From Brevinema andersonii (lineage in GTDB: Bacteria; Spirochaetota; DYKD01): 64,000 nucleotides of DNA. The stretch spans positions 1,718 through 65,717 of the forward strand of contig DYKD01000009.1 in NCBI GenBank assembly GCA_020722765.1, in the 5' to 3' direction. The notes below the pieces were generated by a model. It had not been told where the DNA came from. It saw nothing but the letters and a program-made list of their open reading frames with translations, and did no database searches. This document shows positions 4,943-31,689 of this stretch, piece after piece (the first letter of the stretch is position 1; each line of letters begins with the position of its first letter). Both the position numbers and the translations under genes were made by a program.

Positions 4943-5377
4943 ATGGGAATGTATACGGAACTGAAACTCAATGTCGAACTTAAGCAGGATGTTCCAGATG
5001 AAGTAATTCATATATTGGAATACATGCTCGACGATTCGGCTCACCAACCACCATTACCTGACCATCCGTTGTTCAAGACCGCAAGATGGAGCAGGATGCT
5101 ACACTGTGGTTCACCGTACTTTAATACGCCGACCTATTCTGAACTGCTGCACGAGGACTCGACATATGTCCTGAACATACAGTGCAACTTCAAGAATTAC
5201 GACGATGAAATCGACAAGTTCCTTGACTGGCTACGGCCACATATACAGACCGAAGGCATAATAGGCCATCATTGGTATGAGACGGATGATGAACCGACGG
5301 CAATATGGAATATGTGCCAAGACGTCGTCTCTGAAGATTTGAGTCTGGAAAAACATACCATCGTGGAGGAAGTGTGA
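4943..5377 (+). CDS. hypothetical protein
   Basis: AGGAGG SD precedes the ATG at 4943 (internal Met of track ORF 4913..5377). Confidence 0.65.
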   Translation: MGMYTELKLNVELKQDVPDEVIHILEYMLDDSAHQPPLPDHPLFKTARWSRMLHCGSPYFNTPTYSELLHEDSTYVLNIQCNFKNYDDEIDKFLDWLRPHIQTEGIIGHHWYETDDEPTAIWNMCQDVVSEDLSLEKHTIVEEV

Positions 5378-5586
5378 TGAGCACGCAGAATATATTCATC
5401 GAAAAGGCATCATTCGAGGCACTACATACGGAGAGCGTGCTCGTAAGTACGCTGCTGGACAGCAACCTGACGCGCAAGATGAGATGGCGATACCAGGATT
5501 ACCTGGCAGCCATCCACCGGCGCATGAAGGAATTACAAGGAGGTCGAGATGGAATTCAAGCTACTGATCGCAACACTGCTGGTTGA
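5374..5586 (+). CDS. hypothetical protein
   Basis: ATGA start/stop overlap with the upstream gene. Confidence 0.5.
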   Translation: MMSTQNIFIEKASFEALHTESVLVSTLLDSNLTRKMRWRYQDYLAAIHRRMKELQGGRDGIQATDRNTAG

Positions 5587-5920
5587 GACCTGTCTACTCA
5601 TAATGCGTAACCAGGTATCATCGTTCCTATATGAACAAACGGTACAACATGCAGCTGACGTACCGATCAGACGGGAACGGATAAACTGGCTCGTTCCAAG
5701 CGTATTGCTGACCCTGTTATATACCGGTTTGCTGATTGGAATACTGTTCACAAGGATATGGTGGTTTGCAATCATCATCTTTGGGCTATCAGTCATCACC
5801 TCCAGATTCATGAACAAGGCAGAAACATTGCAGGAAATAAAGGATATTGCGCTATTTGATAACCTCATCAGTATTCTCATCACATTTATTGCGATGATAA
5901 TACTAAAGGAGATATCATGA
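5549..5920 (+). CDS. hypothetical membrane protein
   Basis: AAGGAGG SD. 3-4 hydrophobic helices. Confidence 0.6.
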   Translation: MEFKLLIATLLVETCLLIMRNQVSSFLYEQTVQHAADVPIRRERINWLVPSVLLTLLYTGLLIGILFTRIWWFAIIIFGLSVITSRFMNKAETLQEIKDIALFDNLISILITFIAMIILKEIS

Positions 5921-5926
5921 GCAGCT

Positions 5927-6130
5927 ATGAAAGAATGTCCTCATTGCAATGGTTTCGGCTCATCATTCAAGGATCCGGAAGGAGTAGACCACTGCACAAT
6001 GTATGACTGTTCAGGCCTAATAAAGGATGAAACCAAAGGAGAACCAGATGGAACACATATACCATGGCGACCGGAAGATCGCCGAAAAGGAGGACGAGGA
6101 TTATCGTCAGGAAGTGACATTCCTGCTTGA
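5927..6130 (+). CDS. small zinc-finger protein (CxxCxGxG)
   Basis: Contains a CPHCNGFG DnaJ-type Zn-finger motif. The SD is weak and the 3' part overlaps the next ORF. Confidence 0.45.
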   Translation: MKECPHCNGFGSSFKDPEGVDHCTMYDCSGLIKDETKGEPDGTHIPWRPEDRRKGGRGLSSGSDIPA

Positions 6131-6338
6131 AGACAGGGAAGAAAACTTCCTGTTTGAAGAGCAAACATGTATCCATGGAAACCCGTTGGCATATCCTTGT
6201 CCTGACTGCGCGGTCGAAAGACTGGCGCATGGAACAAAGAGGAACGAGGAGAAAATCCCATTAAGGAGGTTAGATGAAAGTCATGCAAAATCTGCGTCAT
6301 ATTTATCTGAAATGGAAGATGCGGAAGACACTCAATGA
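6048..6338 (+). CDS. acidic hypothetical protein
   Basis: AAAGGAG SD precedes the ATG at 6048 (internal Met of track ORF 6027..6338). Confidence 0.5.
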   Translation: MEHIYHGDRKIAEKEDEDYRQEVTFLLEDREENFLFEEQTCIHGNPLAYPCPDCAVERLAHGTKRNEEKIPLRRLDESHAKSASYLSEMEDAEDTQ

Positions 6339-9165: not shown

Positions 9166-10362
9166 ATGCAGAGACTGTTACAATTCATAAGGAGCCATCG
9201 GGAACAATTACTCATAATACTTGCGTTGACTGCAGCATTCATACTTACCAGCACAGTCACTTCAATCATCACTTCCAGCAATGAAAGATCAAATATCATC
9301 AGGGAACTGGTGGAAATACAGAAGATCCAGTCAACCACACTCGAAGATTACAGGCGTGACTTCATCCAGAAGGGATTACTGGCCAGACAGGTATACCAAT
9401 GGAGCTGGTACAAATCGGTTAACACCAAGGTAGGCAACCTTAATCTCAACAAGTATTACGCGATGAGCCTTGTTGAATTCAACCAGTTGCTTGAATGGTC
9501 ATGGGAATTCAACCGGCAGCTGTCAATCCCGCCTGACAGTTGGGAAAATTACATCATGCTCGCAAAGTGGATACTTGAAAGCAGCATCTACCTGCAAGCG
9601 GAACACAAGACAGGTGAAATCATCCATATGGCAGGATACACAAGACCAGGTTTCGAGCATGCGCTCATCCAATACAAGTACAAGATGAACATCAATCCAG
9701 GCCATAAGTTCTACATCAGGGACCTTGATATTGCAAGAACAATATCAGACCAGGAAATAAGGCAGATATTCTCGACAACCGACAATGTCCTCAAATTTGA
9801 TTATACCTTCATCCATTACCTGTTGATGAAATATGATTATAAGTGGGACTGGGTTTTGACCGCCTTCCATTTCGGCGAGGACAAGACCGAATATTGGAAT
9901 GGTTTAGGACTGAAGGACATACCCAACTTCAGGCTGGATGGGCAATGGGAAACCCATTACCTGAGGGAATATTACCAGACCGTATTCGAGATAGCCAAAG
10001 GCATAGCCGATGGCACATTCTCCAGAATCAGCAGGTATGAGGAAACCGTCAATAGACTGGCACATAGGGATGCCAGAAGGGACAGGTTCATCAGTGTACT
10101 AAAGTTAAAGGCCAGATCTGAAGACAAGTTCAGGGATCTTGAAGAGAAGTACAACCTATTACGGAATGACTTCAAGGAATACAAGGAAGTCAACGAGCAG
10201 ATATTGCAACAGATGGCGGAACTGAATGATATGTCATTGGCTGATCAGAACAATTCTGATATAAAGGAACAAATTAGACAACTGAAGAAAAGGATCAGAC
10301 AGACGTTCAAGCATCTGAAATTTCCAAATAGGCAGGTACAAACCAATGTACATACCAATTAA
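9166..10362 (+). CDS. membrane-anchored protein with a possible SLT-like lytic transglycosylase core and a C-terminal coiled coil
   Basis: TAAGGAG SD precedes the ATG at 9166. N-terminal TM helix. ILESSIYLQAEHKTGEIIHMAGY and LTAFHFGE loosely match the ES...GLMQ and AYNAG motifs. Confidence 0.5.
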   Translation: MQRLLQFIRSHREQLLIILALTAAFILTSTVTSIITSSNERSNIIRELVEIQKIQSTTLEDYRRDFIQKGLLARQVYQWSWYKSVNTKVGNLNLNKYYAMSLVEFNQLLEWSWEFNRQLSIPPDSWENYIMLAKWILESSIYLQAEHKTGEIIHMAGYTRPGFEHALIQYKYKMNINPGHKFYIRDLDIARTISDQEIRQIFSTTDNVLKFDYTFIHYLLMKYDYKWDWVLTAFHFGEDKTEYWNGLGLKDIPNFRLDGQWETHYLREYYQTVFEIAKGIADGTFSRISRYEETVNRLAHRDARRDRFISVLKLKARSEDKFRDLEEKYNLLRNDFKEYKEVNEQILQQMAELNDMSLADQNNSDIKEQIRQLKKRIRQTFKHLKFPNRQVQTNVHTN

Positions 10363-10990
10363 TACTATGATTAAAGCCACCATTATATGTGGCATTATTG
10401 CCGTAACGTTCATGATCATATCAATGACCAATACCAGAGATGTATTCTTCTATGATAAGCCTACAAAATTGACTATTGCCACAAAGTACATAAAGAATCC
10501 GGCACATGCCATCGCATTTGTCGCTTTATGTGATTATTTGGGTATTGACCTGGCATTGGGACTAGCAGTAATGGAACGTGAGAGCCATTTCAGACAATAT
10601 GCATACTCGTCAAAAGTGGTAAATGGTAAACGCCAAATCATAGCGAGAGGTTATATGGCAACGCATGTCACTACCAGCAAGTTCATAATGACGAAGACCC
10701 CTGGTATGGAATACAGGGGTTCCCAGTCGGAATACGACTCTGCCAATAACATGTATAACGGATTAGTCCACCTCAGATACTGCATTGAAACATTCGGTTA
10801 TAACAAAGGTATAGAGATCTATAATGTAGGTGAAGGAAATTATAAGAAGAGAATACGCAATCCGGACTATACCGCATACGTCCTTACAAGAGCAGATATG
10901 ATCAAAGAGGAAATGCAGGAATTACGGAAAGAACAGGAACGGAAACAGGTTTTCCAACCATTATCGATATATGCATGGAGATTCAAATGA
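10346..10990 (+). CDS. membrane-anchored lytic transglycosylase (SLT domain)
   Basis: N-terminal TM helix. MERESHFRQYAYS (catalytic E-S motif), ARGYMATH and IYNVGEGNY all fit the SLT family. Confidence 0.65.
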   Translation: MYIPINTMIKATIICGIIAVTFMIISMTNTRDVFFYDKPTKLTIATKYIKNPAHAIAFVALCDYLGIDLALGLAVMERESHFRQYAYSSKVVNGKRQIIARGYMATHVTTSKFIMTKTPGMEYRGSQSEYDSANNMYNGLVHLRYCIETFGYNKGIEIYNVGEGNYKKRIRNPDYTAYVLTRADMIKEEMQELRKEQERKQVFQPLSIYAWRFK

Positions 10991-11051: not shown

Positions 11052-11480
11052 ATGATAACAATATACGTAGACGGGTCAAGTCTGGGAAATCCGGGAAATG
11101 CGGCCTGTAAGATGGTTATTGAGGATGGGGACAGACATGATGTCCTTGTAAAGGATCTGGGCTTCCATTCCAACAATTATGCGGAACTGGCGGGTATTCT
11201 CATGGGTCTTGAATACCTTGAGAAGAGACGGATGGCAGGCGAACTCGATGGATCCAAAATCCAGATATGGTCTGATTCAAGGATAGCCCTTGGTTGGATG
11301 ATAAACGCGCCAACCAAAGGCGTATTGGATTATCGTGAACTCATGCTGATGATTGATCGCATCCATGAGATAAAAAGTAAGTTACCACAAATTGTCATAT
11401 CCCACTGGCAGACCAGGGCTTGGGGTGAGATCCCTGCAGATTTCGGTAACAAGACAAAAAGCAGGAAGGAGGCAAAATGA
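11052..11480 (+). CDS. rnhA: ribonuclease HI
   Basis: IYVDGSSLGNPGNAAC, NNYAELAGILMGLEY and IWSDSRIALGW match RNase HI motifs. Confidence 0.85.
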   Translation: MITIYVDGSSLGNPGNAACKMVIEDGDRHDVLVKDLGFHSNNYAELAGILMGLEYLEKRRMAGELDGSKIQIWSDSRIALGWMINAPTKGVLDYRELMLMIDRIHEIKSKLPQIVISHWQTRAWGEIPADFGNKTKSRKEAK

Positions 11481-11758
11481 CCAATGATGACATCTCTTTG
11501 GTAAATATCGTATCGGTACTTACCCCCGAACAGAAAGCTGTTTTTGATAACAGCGGGCTTCACAAGGTCGTGGAAACATTCGGTACTAAGGAAGACAATG
11601 TCACAGTCCTAAAGACTGAGTTGGGCAATCTGGTAATAGCCGAGAATCTCAGGCATATCATACCGGTGAAAATAAATATGGATTTAAGGCATCCTGTACT
11701 CATGCTTGGCGCTTTCAGATGGAGGATATTCGACGACGGAATAGAAATTCATATCTAG
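11477..11758 (+). CDS. hypothetical protein
   Basis: ATGA overlap with the RNase H gene. 93 aa. Confidence 0.55.
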   Translation: MTNDDISLVNIVSVLTPEQKAVFDNSGLHKVVETFGTKEDNVTVLKTELGNLVIAENLRHIIPVKINMDLRHPVLMLGAFRWRIFDDGIEIHI

Positions 11759-11766
11759 GAGGCAGT

Positions 11767-14406
11767 ATGATCGTCCATGTTGACGGAACTGCGATAGACA
11801 TATCCCGGACAAGAAATACCAAGGACAATTTGCTCATTGTCATCAAGGTAACCGGGAACATAGTCAGAAACTATGAGCTGGAAGTGGTAGATTATAAGGC
11901 TATGACTAGCCGATCTACGGTTGAATTTGCCCCAATCCATATGGATTCCAAAGGCAATATCATCGTCAATAATCATGTTGTCATAACCGAAGACAATCTA
12001 ATAAGACTTAACGATGGAACATTCGAGAACTCAGCAATAACGAACGAATTCAATGCTCAGAAGATATTGAATAGAACAATCATAGATAATCCTATCTATG
12101 GCGCACTATTCTTGGCTATTACAGGAAAGGAACCTGAATCTATCAACATGTTATCTCTCAATGATGTAAATGAGATCATCAGTAATAGGGACATTATACC
12201 TAAGATCTGGAATGTCAAATATAAAGGTCTCCATATATGGCGTCTTAATCAGAGAGAAGAATATGTATATCAGGCTGTACTCAGAAAAGTTTACCAGATG
12301 GTATTTGAGAATCTAACAGAATCAAGGCTCAAGTATGCCATACGAAAACTGAATCTTTCCAAACAGGAAGCTATCTTCAACAAGCATCAGGCAATTGCAG
12401 CAAGCCATAAGGTTGATATCCCATGGGAAGCTGGCATGATAAACATGCTGGAATATGATGCCAATCTGATCCCTAATGATACCCCGCAGAACGGAAACGC
12501 AGGTCTGGTTGTCGCCAAAGTCTATAAGGAACAGAATGGAAAACGTTTCTCATATCTTCAGTGGATAAACCAATGGGCTGAAAACTGCTCCCCTAACCGG
12601 CAGATTGTAGCTAGATATGTCACTCAGATTTGCGAACTTACAAACCGGAACTTCAAGGACAATCTTGTCAACCTCTTCGCTGCCAGAATGACATACATGG
12701 GATATACGCTAGAAGATGGTTGCGTCATATCTGAAACAACCGCCGAGAAATTCAGATGTTACGACATCAATATTGACAGGTTCATAGTCCGCAATCCAAA
12801 ACTGACGGTCCAACCTCTCGCCAATTTCGACGCATACATGTACGAATACCTGATACAGGATGATGCGCCATTTGTCAACAGGGGTTACCTTGGAACATAT
12901 AATGGTGATAACGAAATCAGAAGCAAATATTATGGCATAGTCACCAATATTGACATAACAGAAACGGAAATCGAAGGTGAATACCTGGTCATTGTCGAGA
13001 CCACATCAGTATTGAGATTACGTGAAGGGGATAAGTTAGCTGATTTGCATGGCAACAAAGTCACAGTAACAAAGATACTGCCTAGTGAACTGATGCCAAG
13101 AGCTTGTGGTAAATATCTTGATATCATTGTCCCACCATGGATTGGCAAACGCGGTTCTGCAAGCAGACTGAAAGAAGAGGAACATTCAACGGTTCATAAT
13201 GTCGCAGTAGTGACAGATTCCCTGAATGACACATTCTATCAGGATGTGGCGGTAGGTCATGTGACCTATATCCGGTTAAGCCAGCATGCAAAGAAGAAAC
13301 TCAACTATAGCCATAAGACAGAAACCAATTATATGGGGCTGGTACCTAAAGGTTATGGGTTGTACAGTTTTGCAGATGCAATGTACCACATGGAAGCGGT
13401 TGGTGCCAAAGACCTGATGATGGAAATCCTAAATAGGACATATGATACAAACAGTCCAGAACTCCTGAATCAGCATCTCAAATGCTTCGGCTTCGAACTG
13501 ATAAAGGGTAGAATTACAGGGCTTTCAAAGACCCCATTCTTCACTGCTCCTGATAATGATATTATCCTAGACAAATTCGTTAATGCTGAAGAGATTGCAA
13601 CACTTGCAGATCCTACCGGTACGGTCCTTGATCCTAGAATATTATATTCTCATTCATGGATAAGAATACCTGAAGGATTACAGCTGACTTTCCATGCCCT
13701 TACCTCGCAATTACGTATCCACAGCTATGACCATGAATATGTGACACACAAGCTGGTAGATGATATGAGCTGGATGAAACGCTATGATATAAGTTTCGGC
13801 CATCTGATGACAGATGGTAAGAAACAGGTATTCATCCGCATACCTCCCGGATTGCGGACATGGACAACGAAGACAGATACAGTGACCTTATCAGATATTC
13901 AGCATCAGTTAAACCAGCTGATAATGCAATTGAAGACATATGAGCAGACAAGGTTCAGGGCCATGCAATTTGATCCTTCAAGACGAATCAATATGCTCGT
14001 GAACAAGCTGTTGGATTCGATGCTGTCAAGAATATTCACGAAATCAGGATTACTCCGCAACACCATCCATCCAAGAACAAAGTTCTCCATGAATGCGGTA
14101 TTAGGCTCGAATCCTGAACTTCCACTTGACACATGTGAAATCCCATTAGAAGCATTCCATGATTATCTCAAAGATGAGGAATTCCGCAAAGCATATGGAC
14201 TAAGTGAGATAGAAGACCCTGACATAGGCGAGATTAATTTCGCCATTGAAAAGATGGATGCAAGATGCCTCGTAATGAGAAATCCTGCACATCAGGTAAG
14301 GAACTGCCAAGGAATGCGATTTAGAGTATGGGCTGGAAATTCAATCAGGATAAATCCGGCAATCGTCAAAGTCTTCGATAAACAAAACAATCTCCGTATG
14401 TGTTGA
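11767..14406 (+). CDS. single-chain beta/beta-prime-like RNA polymerase, 5' exon (raw ORF; the last ~11-17 codons are probably intronic read-through)
   Basis: AGGAGG SD. Beta motifs: MGYTLEDGCVISE, GDKLADLHGNKVTVTKILPSELMP...DIIVPPWIGKRGSASRL and FADAMYHMEAVGA. These are followed by the beta-prime motif RNPAHQVRNCQGMRFRV...IRINP. Confidence 0.8.
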   Translation: MIVHVDGTAIDISRTRNTKDNLLIVIKVTGNIVRNYELEVVDYKAMTSRSTVEFAPIHMDSKGNIIVNNHVVITEDNLIRLNDGTFENSAITNEFNAQKILNRTIIDNPIYGALFLAITGKEPESINMLSLNDVNEIISNRDIIPKIWNVKYKGLHIWRLNQREEYVYQAVLRKVYQMVFENLTESRLKYAIRKLNLSKQEAIFNKHQAIAASHKVDIPWEAGMINMLEYDANLIPNDTPQNGNAGLVVAKVYKEQNGKRFSYLQWINQWAENCSPNRQIVARYVTQICELTNRNFKDNLVNLFAARMTYMGYTLEDGCVISETTAEKFRCYDINIDRFIVRNPKLTVQPLANFDAYMYEYLIQDDAPFVNRGYLGTYNGDNEIRSKYYGIVTNIDITETEIEGEYLVIVETTSVLRLREGDKLADLHGNKVTVTKILPSELMPRACGKYLDIIVPPWIGKRGSASRLKEEEHSTVHNVAVVTDSLNDTFYQDVAVGHVTYIRLSQHAKKKLNYSHKTETNYMGLVPKGYGLYSFADAMYHMEAVGAKDLMMEILNRTYDTNSPELLNQHLKCFGFELIKGRITGLSKTPFFTAPDNDIILDKFVNAEEIATLADPTGTVLDPRILYSHSWIRIPEGLQLTFHALTSQLRIHSYDHEYVTHKLVDDMSWMKRYDISFGHLMTDGKKQVFIRIPPGLRTWTTKTDTVTLSDIQHQLNQLIMQLKTYEQTRFRAMQFDPSRRINMLVNKLLDSMLSRIFTKSGLLRNTIHPRTKFSMNAVLGSNPELPLDTCEIPLEAFHDYLKDEEFRKAYGLSEIEDPDIGEINFAIEKMDARCLVMRNPAHQVRNCQGMRFRVWAGNSIRINPAIVKVFDKQNNLRMC

Positions 14407-14798
14407 CATCAGACCAAAAGTGTTATCTAATATGAGTATCCAGAACTAAGGAGACTCATATGAGAAAGTATTTTACTGGTCGGAAGTACAACAAGAACTT
14501 CTTTAACCAAATCGATTCAAAGGAGAAAGCCTGAAACTTCAAGATATATTCTATGCAGAACCTCCAAAATTCAGGTTAAAGAGGAAAGAGATTAAGTTTC
14601 AACTGTCGAAGTAAAATCCTTCTCAAACGGTGAATCCCCACTTAAATGAGGGCAACGCCGTACCAAAACCCATAGGAATATGGATAATGGTCTATCGACT
14701 TATAGGACTCCAGAACGGAGTTACTAGGAGGCTTTCAAGCCTAAATGAAGGACATCCGAAAGGATGAAGGAATAGTCAGTGCCACTAGTAATAGTGGG
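14356..14798 (+). mobile_element. putative self-splicing (group I-like) intron in the RNAP gene; outer bounds of two candidate 426-nt solutions
   Basis: A ~370-nt ORF-poor gap splits a conserved motif. GNRA-capped hairpins: CATCC-GAAA-GGATG at 14752-14765 and CCACTA-GTAA-TAGTGG at 14782-14797. Long-range pair CCTGAA/TTCAGG at 14529-34/14569-74. Candidate U/G splice pairs are 14355/14781 or 14372/14798. Confidence 0.6.
14459..14533 (+). pseudogene. possible remnant of a LAGLIDADG-type homing endonuclease ORF inside the intron
   Basis: An AAGGAG SD (sequestered in hairpin 14429-14460) precedes MRKYFTGRKYNKNFFNQIDSKEKA*. By my recollection this resembles the ..FF..ID.EEKAYWLG lead-in of LAGLIDADG enzymes, and it stops right where the motif would start. 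Confidence 0.3.
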
Positions 14799-15666
14799 GA
14801 ACATGGGTGATTTCGATGGCGATACTGCGATTGGATACTTTCCAATAAGCAAAGAGGCAATGGAAGACCTGAAGAAATTCACATTGGAAGACCATATCAG
14901 ACATTTTATAACAGAGAAAGACCTGAAAGGATTCAGGATATTACCGACACTACGCCAGAATGATATGTCTATCCGACGATGGTACAAGCACAATACGGGC
15001 ATATCAGAGACTAAGAAAGATCTTGTGGCTCGTTATGGAGAAGCCAAAGCTGCTAACTTCAACAAGCTGTATAATGCAGAATATTCACCAGAAGAACTGT
15101 TCGACATGCAGAAGGATGCAGCTGGTGAATTCAGTTACATGAAATCAGGAACTGCGAATGCCGGCAATATTGGTAACCTGTTACGCAACCTGATGTACAA
15201 GGAACATGGGATGACCGGTATCAAGGTCGCCAACCACGTATATCATGTGCTAGCCCAAGCGGCACTGGATTGCAAGAATTCACTGACTGATAGGGCGAAA
15301 CTGGATACCGCATTCATGGCTTTCAGAAGTTACAAGATGGATAAGCCGACATTCGTGGAAGCGCTAAGTCCATACTTTAAGGACATAATAATAGACACAC
15401 TATGGAAGGTTCTGACAAAGAACGGACGATGGCAGGGAAACATAACAAGCGTGATAGCAAGGAACATGCCGATAGCCCACATAGTGAATGCTGGCAAAGT
15501 ATCAGACCTGTATCTTGCCGCGCTGAATACCAAACTAGGGAAGAAGGAAGGAAGTTTCGTCGAGTATCTGACTGAATTCATCCATCCTCGCAACGATCTG
15601 ATGATTAAGAAAACACTGACTAAGGAAGAGGACATAGTGATCCTATCCACGGACGACGAACCATAA
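14779..15666 (+). CDS. single-chain beta/beta-prime-like RNA polymerase, 3' exon (raw ORF)
   Basis: PLVIVGNMGDFDGDTAIGY matches the universal NADFDGD Mg-binding loop. AGNIGNLLRNLMY resembles the bridge helix. There is no SD or ATG at the ORF start. Confidence 0.8.
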   Translation: MPLVIVGNMGDFDGDTAIGYFPISKEAMEDLKKFTLEDHIRHFITEKDLKGFRILPTLRQNDMSIRRWYKHNTGISETKKDLVARYGEAKAANFNKLYNAEYSPEELFDMQKDAAGEFSYMKSGTANAGNIGNLLRNLMYKEHGMTGIKVANHVYHVLAQAALDCKNSLTDRAKLDTAFMAFRSYKMDKPTFVEALSPYFKDIIIDTLWKVLTKNGRWQGNITSVIARNMPIAHIVNAGKVSDLYLAALNTKLGKKEGSFVEYLTEFIHPRNDLMIKKTLTKEEDIVILSTDDEP

Positions 15667-29339: not shown

Positions 29340-30568
29340 ATGGGCAAGGCTGGGAAATCACTGCTTGATCCTGCTACTGAGGAGATTTCCGGCACAGAAG
29401 CCCTACCTGCTAAGAAGATACAGAAACAGATCTACCGTAAGATAGAGGATCTGTATGATTTTGTGTCTACAGGTGTCCCTGTCATGTTCGTACATGACAG
29501 GGACATCCGGGGTTTCTTCTGCACGGACAATACGAAAATCGGGATCGGACCACTATTGGATACACATAAGATCTATATGATGTCACAAGGTTTCAGCATG
29601 ATCTCGATCGAGAAACAGAAATTGGCGAATCATACCATCAAGTTCACTGAAGTGAACGCGCCGGATGAGATAGGAACAATGTCACCAATAACGAATCCGG
29701 CACTGGGCCTGGATTATTTCCTCGACAAGATGCCGACAAAAATTGTAGGTGAAACAACAGATGCAGTCCTGGTTTTGTCATATGATCCGGATATAATCAA
29801 TGACAATAACAAGATAACAGGCACCTTAAGGGACCATTATAATGATATGGTCATGACGATCCAGCGTGACATCGTGAAAAGACGACCAAACCAGCACGTT
29901 AACACAAGGAATAGTCCTACACTACATACATCAGTGGGAGAATATGATCCAGGCTCAAACGATGGAACGCCAGAATCCATTCCTTCTAGAGTTGTGATAA
30001 TATTGAGTTCGAGACCGCAATTACCTCCAAGGCTAAATGGTTATTGTCTCAATGTTGGCACAATCATCAGACATTTGGTCTCGAATACGAAAGGTGAAAA
30101 CAGGTTACCACATAGCCTGACAAGTAGCCTCACCACTACTGAAATACTATTGGCACAAAGGTTATATGATACATCGGCTGATGATGCGAAAGTAAAACGC
30201 TTCAGAAAAGCGGTATTCACTTCCAATAATGTCATTGAAGACATTACTGATTATCCGTCCATGAAAGACATAGGCGGGTATGATAACCTGAAAGCGTTCA
30301 TCGAAACTAGGAAGACATTGCTTGATAAGTACTATAATAAGATGCTGGAACGTAATCTGCAGATCAAAGGTATCTTCATTGCAGGTGTTCCAGGATCCGG
30401 TAAAACCCAGATATTGAAAGCCCTAGGTTCCTACTGGGGATTGCCGGCATACCGTTTACGGCTAGAAGCGGTCTTCGGCAGATATGTCGGAGATTCGGAA
30501 AGTGCGCTGATTTCGGCGCTGGAAAACCTGCAGAAACTGTCCCCTTGCTTCGTATTATTGGATGAGAT
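29340..30568 (+). CDS. classical-clade AAA+ ATPase (CDC48/FtsH-like module), 5' exon
   Basis: Walker A GVPGSGKT, then YVGDSE, then Walker B FVLLDEI at the exon end. The raw ORF runs on to 30596. Confidence 0.8.
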
Positions 30569-31193
30569 TAAATTATCAGTCTCCTTGGCGGCGTGAGCCG
30601 TCATGAAAAAGCGGGTCAATTGCTGGAAACCCCTTAAGCCTATTAGGCTACAACATAATCCGCAAGGATAAGTGTGAATGCTTGAAAACTAATAGGATTG
30701 GACAATCAGCAGCCACTTCCTGGGAACAGGAAAGGTTCAGAGACTACGAGTCCGCTAAGTTGGCAGCCAGCTTCTTCTAGTAGATAATATACTAAATACT
30801 AGAAGGAGTAGGCTATGATGTATAACATTGTACAAGCATCAAAGATGCTAAACAGAAGCAAACGAGAAGCTGTACTAGAACTAGATAATAATGAATGTCA
30901 GTTATGTGGCGATGACCAAGATTTGGTCGTACATCATATAGATGAGAAAAGCAGTAGAAATTCAGATACTCCAAATAATAGTTTGGATAATCTGATTACG
31001 CTCTGTAAACAATGTCATTATTATTGTCATTGGCATACTAGATTTAATGCTATTAAGCATAAAATTCTAGTTATTGCCGACAAGTTCAAGTTATTTATTA
31101 GTGATCAACTTAAAGATATAGTCCGAACTCGTATGAGAATACGAGAGGATGGCAGAAATGACCATCCAGCCGGATAACCGGTGTTAACAGTTG
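30569..31193 (+). mobile_element. group I intron carrying an HNH homing endonuclease
   Basis: R element GTTCAGAGACTAC at 30735-30747. S element AAGATATAGTCC at 31113-31124. P7 pairs GACTA with TAGTC. P1 pairs GAGAT (30564-68) with GTCTC (30579-83), with a U-G at the splice site. P10 pairs TTATCA (30573-78) with TGATAA (31194-99). The terminal intron G (omega-G) is at 31193. There are several GNRA hairpins. Confidence 0.85.
30815..31177 (+). CDS. HNH homing endonuclease (intron-encoded)
   Basis: CQLCGDDQDLVVHHID...NLITLCKQCHYYCH. GGAG SD. AT-rich relative to the flanks. Confidence 0.85.
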   Translation: MMYNIVQASKMLNRSKREAVLELDNNECQLCGDDQDLVVHHIDEKSSRNSDTPNNSLDNLITLCKQCHYYCHWHTRFNAIKHKILVIADKFKLFISDQLKDIVRTRMRIREDGRNDHPAG

Positions 31194-31689
31194 TGATAAG
31201 TCATTAGCAGGAGTAGGAGAAGGTGAAGTAGCAGGTTCCGATGTACCTAAGAGGGTCTTCGGTATCCTATTGGATAAGATGGCTGAAAGTACAGGCATCA
31301 TTTTCGGTGCCAGTGCCAACAGGGTAAAATCCATACCAGAGGAATTCATGAGACGTGGTCGTTTTGACCGCATCTTCTTCATGGATCTTCCGGATATAAA
31401 AGCTAGGATGAAGATCATATCTATCCATCTAGGCAAGCACGGTTACGATCATAAGCAGTTCACACATGATGAACTGACACAGATGGTTGATTCAATGGAT
31501 AAGTTTACAGGTGCGGAAATCGAATCGGTGATTACTGAGGCGATTATCCAGTCCCTGGTAGACAATGATGGTAAGCTTACTGCTAGCCATATCATAAAGA
31601 AAGCCAACGAAACAACAACCATCGACAAGAACAAAACAGACATCAAGGAACTCGCTGCATGGGCTGAAAAGTTCGCAACGAAGGCCTGA
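31194..31689 (+). CDS. classical-clade AAA+ ATPase, 3' exon
   Basis: The spliced junction reads LLDEI|DKSLAG. ASANRVKSIPEEFMRRGRFDRIFFMDLPD matches the sensor-1/Arg-finger/second-region-of-homology (SRH) pattern. Track ORF 31270..31689 has no SD. Confidence 0.8.

Follow-up and report, generated by a model that had tools for sequence, protein, structure and literature searches.

What separates the two halves of an RNA polymerase (RNAP) gene in a 64,000-nt stretch of DNA filed under Brevinema andersonii (contig DYKD01000009.1, positions 1,718 to 65,717 of the forward strand; hereafter the window), and how could one polymerase chain be made from them? The first open reading frame (ORF1, + strand) starts at 11719 (or 11767) and runs to a UGA stop at 14404-14406, ending ...IRINPAIVKVFDKQNNLRMC. 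The second (ORF2, + strand) has a GTG start at 14779, opens with VPLVIVGNMGDFDGD and ends at 15666, so that the gap of interest is the one between ORF 11719-14406 and ORF 14779-15666. An earlier note on this DNA had proposed that an intron interrupts the gene just upstream of the DFDGD codons, and both the uninterrupted homologs and the gapless fit of the spliced product bear this out. Very probably, the interruption is a group I intron (14380-14805, + strand, 426 nt, phase 0) within a fused beta-beta' phage RNAP gene, placed between the Asp and Gly codons of VFD/GDFDGD (here and below a slash within a sequence or between coordinates marks a junction) and carrying a LAGLIDADG stub; its splicing and the chemistry of that splicing are what we infer from these features. 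We have little doubt that the intron is real, and its borders at 14380 and 14805 are likely.

Homologs and the position of the splice junction

Exon 1 (11719-14379, + strand) ends in ...NPAIVKVFD, as delimited by the ORF list, the Pfam Rpb2_6 match and a contiguous alignment with the homolog P0003 and others up to VFD; the earlier note had the end of ORF1 right but stopped its homologous part at VF. The start codon of exon 1 is uncertain, being either ATG 11719 or 11767, as called in L001, the sole other copy of the locus. Exon 2 (14806-15666, + strand) begins with the codons GGU GAU UUC GAU GGC GAU (GDFDGD...). An exhaustive HMMER search returned 239 relatives of the conceptually spliced protein. 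P0003 (1162 aa, 61% identical) aligns with it in a single stretch over residues 18-1171, and the P0003 gene is uninterrupted (contig L002, 6001-9489), reading AIVKMLDGDFDGD, with the intron-less site GTGAAGATGCTGGAC/GGCGACTTCGACGGC. Aligned across the junction, P0003 has ININPAIVKMLDGDFDGD and P0004 has RFNPALVTVFDGDFDGD, and NPAIVK(M/V)(L/F)D-GDFDGD is the form found in P0003 and more than 100 other uninterrupted homologs.

Removal of 426 nt restores the reading frame and gives a gapless fit across the junction to 118 homologs and to bacterial beta' (8x6f_D: IRLHPLVTTAYNADFDGD). This length is fixed because the residue at position -9 from DFDGD is Pro in 109 of the 118. The comparison with intron-less homologs supports the intron, but it places the junction at 14379/14806 and at neither of the two solutions of the earlier note, 14355/14356...14781/14782 and 14372/14373...14798/14799. 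Those solutions are indeed in frame, with U before the 5' splice site and G as the last intron base, and each removes 426 nt; as borders they do not hold, since N-M-G before DFDGD occurs in 0 of 118 homologs and neither 5' site offers more than four contiguous pairs for the P1 helix. The U...G rule alone settles nothing, because about 75 in-frame U...G pairs lie nearby, of which three correspond to a removal of 426 nt; the third, absent from the earlier list, is 14379/14380...14805/14806.

To rank the candidates, all 824 in-frame junctions were scored, with the U/G rule ignored, against two profiles of uninterrupted homologs, one built from the 35 close ones and one from the full set of 115. 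Junction 14379/14806 (VFD/GDFDGD) ranked first of 824 in both profiles, at 107.1 bits, and turns out to obey the ignored rule, with a U on the exon side of the 5' site and a G closing the intron; 14372/14798 scored 102.3 bits and 14355/14781 lower. Position -2 is N or D in 89 of 118 homologs and position -3 is F, L, Y or M in 109 of 118, while M at -2 or N at -3 is found in none of them.

The same group I intron could instead be spliced at 14372/14373...14798/14799 to give ...NPAIVKV-NMGDFDGD. This solution survives as a minor rival because the alignment to the Rfam group I model RF00028 (see below) ends exactly at G14798, right after the P9 hairpin, which is what made 14798 attractive. The U...G rule holds for U14372 and G14798, the distance from Pro to Asp is unchanged, and inspection of the sequence allows a local P1 to be sketched at 14365-72/14400-07, interrupted by one A·G mismatch and otherwise made of five Watson-Crick and two G·U pairs. 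Splicing there would, however, install at -2 and -3 precisely the M and N that all 118 homologs lack; it costs 5-6 bits of profile score, leaves at most four contiguous P1 pairs and allows no P10 or P9.0 to be drawn. We regard it as unlikely.

Ligation at 14379/14806 would read ...GTCTTCGAT/GGTGATTTC..., with the 30-mer ATCGTCAAAGTCTTCGAT/GGTGATTTCGAT spanning it and the tryptic peptide VFDGDFDGDTAIGYFPISK diagnostic of it; the second solution of the earlier note would yield AAAGT/GAACATGGG and the first ATAAAT/CCACTAGTA. The exact junction offers a simple reverse transcription PCR or peptide test.

As for the protein itself, ORF1 matches Pfam RNA_pol_Rpb2_6, the beta-type RNAP barrel with the motif GDKLADLHGNK, and exon 1 holds this barrel together with the N-terminal part of the beta'-type barrel; ORF2 on its own has no Pfam match. 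Spliced, 11719-15666 encodes both RNAP barrels in one chain of ~1173 aa, the beta-type (GDK..HGNK) followed by the beta'-type (DFDGD). More than 30 homologs of 1075-1270 aa occur in metagenomes, and the best PDB sequence matches of the spliced RNAP are bacterial beta' and the AR9 beta-like chain 7s00_C, with E values of 1e-4 to 1e-5 at most. This family of fused phage RNAPs is little characterised.

Proposed ribozyme core and splice-site helices

The class of the intron, about which the earlier note was less certain, is supported by a sensitive Rfam search of 14250-14900 (651 nt), in which RF00028 matched 14568-14798 on the + strand over its full model length (37.9 bits, E 4.2e-8), and by the recovery of the core helices in unconstrained folding. 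The same search, with E up to 10, returned no group II intron or other credible family. A whole-window Rfam search at curated thresholds reported only another intron (30559-31145, 65 bits) and left the one at 14380-14805 unreported. The unconstrained minimum free energy (MFE) fold contains P1, P3-P6a, P7.1, P7.2, P8 and P9; the z-score is -4.4 over the whole region and -4.2 when the core is taken alone, none of the shuffled sequences being as stable.

Helices were taken from the cmscan alignment, and each pair was checked by script as canonical or G-U. The ribozyme core spans 14612-14805 (+ strand, as are all its elements) and comprises P3 (14617-22/14747-52), P4 (14627-32/14656-61), P5 (14637-39/14650-52), P6 (14662-64/14689-91), P6a with a GGAA loop (14670-74/14679-83), the 4-bp P7 (14697-700/14774-77), which is compatible with a P3/P7 pseudoknot, P7.1 (14707-11/14717-21), P7.2 (14729-33/14738-42), P8 (14753-57/14762-66) and P9 (14782-87/14792-97). 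P8 is capped by GAAA at 14758-61, which the earlier note had put at 14757-60, and P9 by GUAA at 14788-91, as it had stated. A 3-bp P9.0 (GUG 14779-81 with CAU 14802-04) flanks P9, and the terminal or omega G, 14805, is the last intron base, placed by P9.0 and P10. The P3-P9 core helices are thus present in the P4-P6 plus P3-P8 domain layout of a group I intron. P7.1 and P7.2 are the hairpins at 14707-21 and 14729-42, which fall after P7 and before the 3' strand of P3. Such a pair at this position is typical of subgroup IA, the usual phage type, and we would label the intron subgroup-IA-like.

The 5' splice site follows U14379 within the strand CUUCGAU/A (14373-14380, + strand), which faces the internal guide sequence ACU/GUCGAAG (14602-14611, + strand). 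GUCGAAG (14605-14611) forms P1 with the end of exon 1 through seven contiguous pairs, a U14379·G14605 wobble and six Watson-Crick pairs, to which A14380-U14604 adds a pair on the intron side; this helix is part of the unconstrained MFE fold. ACU (14602-04), adjoining the 5' end of the P1 part of the guide, forms P10 with GGU 14806-08 at the start of exon 2. The search for guide pairings was made independently, before the homologs were in hand, and U14379 was its top result. Between the end of the guide and P3 lie 5 nt. A seven-pair match arose by chance in 8% of 20,000 dinucleotide shuffles when any position counted, and in 0.5% when it had to end within 10 nt of P3. Two other partners for the same 5' splice site, a short-range P1 at 14375-80/14401-06 and an alternative guide at 14479-84, were rejected; they are shorter, have more wobble pairs and provide no P10. 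The earlier note had been unable to find P1 or P10, and both exist once the junction is set at 14379/14806. This junction is therefore backed by the homologs and, independently, by a 7-bp P1, a 3-bp P10, a 3-bp P9.0 and the terminal G at 14805, and the intron is placed at 14380-14805 because the homolog profile and P1, P10 and P9.0 agree.

Several observations weigh against this assignment. The RF00028 score of 37.9 bits lies below the curated gathering cut-off of 50. The profile margin of the favoured junction over its neighbours is only 2-5 bits, and P10 and P9.0 have only 3 bp each. There is no canonical P2 between P1 and P3, where only UAAAA separates the guide sequence from P3, and P1 encloses an unusually large loop of 223 nt; the first stem drawn by cmscan (14572-80/14597-605) has two mismatches and overlaps the guide sequence. 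Finally, L001 provides no covariation, being the same phage with an identical intron (25 differences in 18.5 kb, 0 in the intron, which is 100% identical).

These points leave room for a dead ribozyme, that is, for a pseudogene or for two separately translated polypeptides that assemble, one being ORF1 ending in ...KQNNLRMC and the other ORF2 initiated at GTG 14779. The low Rfam score and the already decayed endonuclease gene would fit inactivity, and jumbo phages often have their RNAP subunits in split form (PMC7598289). Separate translation could also draw on AAGGA at 14767-71, 7 nt before the GTG; the earlier note had seen neither a Shine-Dalgarno (SD) sequence nor an ATG before ORF2, and while the start is indeed GTG, this element is SD-like. 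It is, however, also J8/7, a conserved strand of the ribozyme. No core helix or junction is disrupted, both flanking exons are still open and conserved, and the gap is exactly the 426 nt that a gapless fit needs. The tail and head peptides of the two ORFs have no homology to anything in the family, and the gap contains no promoter-like or + strand terminator-like site. Separate translation would moreover cut the enzyme inside its catalytic loop, whereas the known phage, cyanobacterial and archaeal splits of beta' lie after the double-psi barrel (PMC7598289). An inactive intron or a split enzyme is accordingly quite improbable. The peptides expected under the rival readings are VNMGDFDGDTAIGYFPISK and a QNNLRMC tail, or an FDKQNNLRMC tail alongside a MPLVIVGNMGDFDGD product with a translation start of its own.

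An intervening element of another kind, a group II intron, an intein or translational bypassing, would explain the bare interruption and nothing beyond it. No group II family matched at E up to 10, and an intein is incompatible with the in-frame stops; for bypassing, 426 nt is far beyond the known bypass length, with a mismatch between the take-off codon GAU and AUG, the codon before the landing site. We give such elements almost no weight.

The L1 domain, its endonuclease stub and related introns

What fills the large loop of P1 in the proposed group I intron? The L1 insertion (14381-14603, + strand) is a structured domain of 223 nt (z-score of the fold -3.7; none of 200 shuffles matched its stability) that includes an 8-bp helix (14430-37/14454-61) over the start codon of a small ORF and an 11-bp helix (14498-508/14574-84). 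The small ORF (14448-14534, + strand, with its SD) consists of AAGGAG at 14448-53, 6 nt upstream of the start, and 24 codons at 14460-14534 reading MRKYFTGRKYNKNFFNQIDSKEKA before the stop. The earlier note had described it correctly as SD-led and of 24 codons, placing it one base off at 14459-14533, and its suspicion of a truncated LAGLIDADG N-terminus is upheld by profile searches. Among 38,880 PHROG families, the mini-ORF matches one, phrog_4645 'endonuclease' (E 0.005), over profile positions 93-110, the same region in which the intron ORFs of two related loci, from other metagenomic phages, begin to match: that of L003 from position 99 onward (E 2e-29) and that of L005 from position 95 onward (E 3e-44). 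Both of these are full-length and belong to LAGLIDADG_3 (Pfam). FFNQIDSKEKA of the mini-ORF corresponds to YFDKIDTKDKA-YILGYLFADG in L003 (BLASTP E 0.001) and to FFSNIDTEEKA-YWLGFLLADG in L005, which has FFSNIDTEEKAYWLGFLLADG. The mini-ORF thus ends (...IDSKEKA) one residue before its L003 and L005 counterparts continue into the LAGLIDADG motif, and the ~560 nt expected to follow are absent from the intron. It has no Pfam match and no LAGLIDADG motif such as a functional endonuclease would carry, and a tblastn search of its 24-aa peptide against phages returned nothing. It is a non-functional stub, the truncated remnant of a LAGLIDADG homing endonuclease, and where a mobile intron encodes an active endonuclease this one has the stub only.

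L003 (Logan SRR24319152_79598) is a single contig with a homologous RNAP gene, which holds both P0014 and P0028. Its ORF1 ends in ...SMGIKSG followed by KNNYHQK and a stop, a 212-aa LAGLIDADG ORF occupies 5434-6072, and the next ORF starts MITKLDFDGD. RF00028 matches at 6061-6292 with 96.3 bits in a 1-kb search, above the cut-off. A sensitive Rfam search over 23 kb of L003 returned nothing for this same intron; speed filters can therefore hide strong group I matches in longer inputs, and window-wide negatives should not be over-read. By the profile test the L003 junction is 5365/6328 (IKSG/DFDGD), with U and G obeyed and 962 nt removed (5366-6327), and tblastn likewise ends exon 1 at 5365. A long-range P1 of 5 bp (GGU/AA with UU/GCC at 6075-79) encloses the ORF there too, and a 3-bp P10 can be drawn by inspection, so that the layout is the same as in the window. 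The two group I introns share a homologous host gene, an ORF in the same 5' position and the phrog_4645 endonuclease family. They differ in that the L003 intron lies one codon (3 nt) downstream (SG/DFDGD), has an intact 212-aa LAGLIDADG gene within its 962 nt, possesses P2-like and P9.1 hairpins and has a core of low sequence similarity to that of the window. L005 starts inside a related endonuclease gene, and the last Asp codon of DFDGD is the first codon of its exon 2, which puts the insertion (DFDG/D) 15 nt downstream of the window site. The intervening sequence of L005 (1-902) is undetected by RF00028; its RNA folds strongly (z -4.8), with hairpins that we read as P4/P5, P6, P8 and P9. Three insertion points therefore fall within 15 nt, at 129/130 (window), 130/131 (L003) and 134/135 (L005).

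Among 76 loci from protein-guided scans of viral and metagenome contigs, tblastn showed no interrupted gene beyond L001, L003/L004 and L005. A blastn search of the gene and the intron against 50,697 phage records gave no relative and one chance match of 35 nt, and the homologous-protein search returned only ORF2 of the phage itself. The pattern ATCGACT-N55-85-GAAGGAATAGTC, run over viral contigs, gave a single chance match, in an intergenic region of L006. Three beta'-like homologs of 237-273 aa, P0057, P0080 and P0106, end ~20 residues upstream of the junction (...SFVLRTNDN, ...SFVVRI and ...RLRTTKRRED); a sister lineage may have a further split or intron there.

Taken jointly, these loci invite a more speculative and on balance doubtful reading, in which the DNA for the catalytic Asp loop of fused RNAPs is a hotspot repeatedly invaded by introns with LAGLIDADG genes in the P1 loop, and in which the endonuclease-less intron of the window has been retained since its 223-nt P1-loop domain times RNAP production.

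Proposed splicing and comparison with known introns

How, then, could the intact enzyme be made? The RNAP gene would be transcribed as one pre-mRNA, in which the intron folds and the exon 1 end CUUCGAU pairs with the guide GUCGAAG (14605-11), creating P1 and its U14379·G14605 wobble pair. Attack after U14379 would come from a free guanosine bound in P7; P9.0 and P10 would position G14805 and exon 2 in the site for joining of the exons, and the ligated mRNA would give the 1173-aa enzyme with an intact Mg-binding loop. Unspliced RNA would yield only a truncated product because translation stops at the read-through UGA (14404-14406, + strand), 8 codons into the intron. The P1 loop would once have held a LAGLIDADG gene that was deleted down to the 24-codon stub, and the intron would therefore no longer be mobile on its own.

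Subgroup IA phage introns include those of T4 td, nrdB and nrdD, of Twort and of the SPO1 family, as defined by Michel-Westhof subgroup features. The window intron shares with them P7.1/P7.2 between P7 and P3', a small A/U-rich core and a conserved enzyme gene as host, as well as an early read-through stop and an ORF start sequestered in a helix. In contrast to them, it has no P2, its ORF stub sits in the P1 loop rather than in P6, P8 or P9, and its Rfam score is below the cut-off.

Phage genes for multisubunit-type RNAPs were already known to host group I introns. The gp210 intron of ΦPA3, also of group I, interrupts gp211/209, the gene for a beta-like subunit of the virion RNAP, just past the codons for two conserved Asp residues, and its HNH enzyme attacks ΦKZ (PMC11620839). 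Like the window intron, it is a group I element associated with a homing endonuclease and inserted at codons for highly conserved acidic residues of a phage multisubunit-type RNAP gene; it differs in residing in a beta-like subunit and in having an active HNH nicking endonuclease, whereas the window has the beta'-type catalytic loop of a fused beta-beta' chain and a 24-codon LAGLIDADG stub. Intron invasion of active-site codons is the expected pattern (PMC12908238). What is specific to the intron described here is its host, a fused beta-beta' protein of ~1170 aa from an uncultured phage, its site inside (N or D)-(G or A)-DFDGD and the decay of its LAGLIDADG gene, together with two features of layout: the ORF lies in the P1 loop and P2 is missing.

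A second group I intron lies in the window at 30559-31145 (+ strand); its RF00028 score of 65.1 bits exceeds the cut-off. The gene that it divides is AAA-ATPase-like (29340-30596 and about 31150-31689), and the intron carries an ORF for a 120-aa HNH endonuclease (30815-31177; Pfam HNH, 1e-6). The RNAP gene is closely preceded by two ORFs, one transglycosylase-like (10346-10990; phrog_21776, with a weak Pfam SLT match in L001) and one for an RNase H (11052-11480; matched by Pfam RNase_H in L001), and is followed ~7 kb downstream by a ClpP-like ORF, as called in L001.

For annotation, the two ORFs are to be read as one RNA polymerase gene of 1173 aa, which automatic gene calls, as in L001, split. 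The intron adds one further case of an intron inside the most conserved loop of a transcription enzyme, and it alters no concept. Were the hotspot real, its three insertion points would suggest endonuclease-driven competition between co-infecting uncultured phages, as for ΦPA3 and ΦKZ. The neighbouring insertion sites and the gain and loss of endonuclease genes among the relatives fit the standard life cycle of homing introns.

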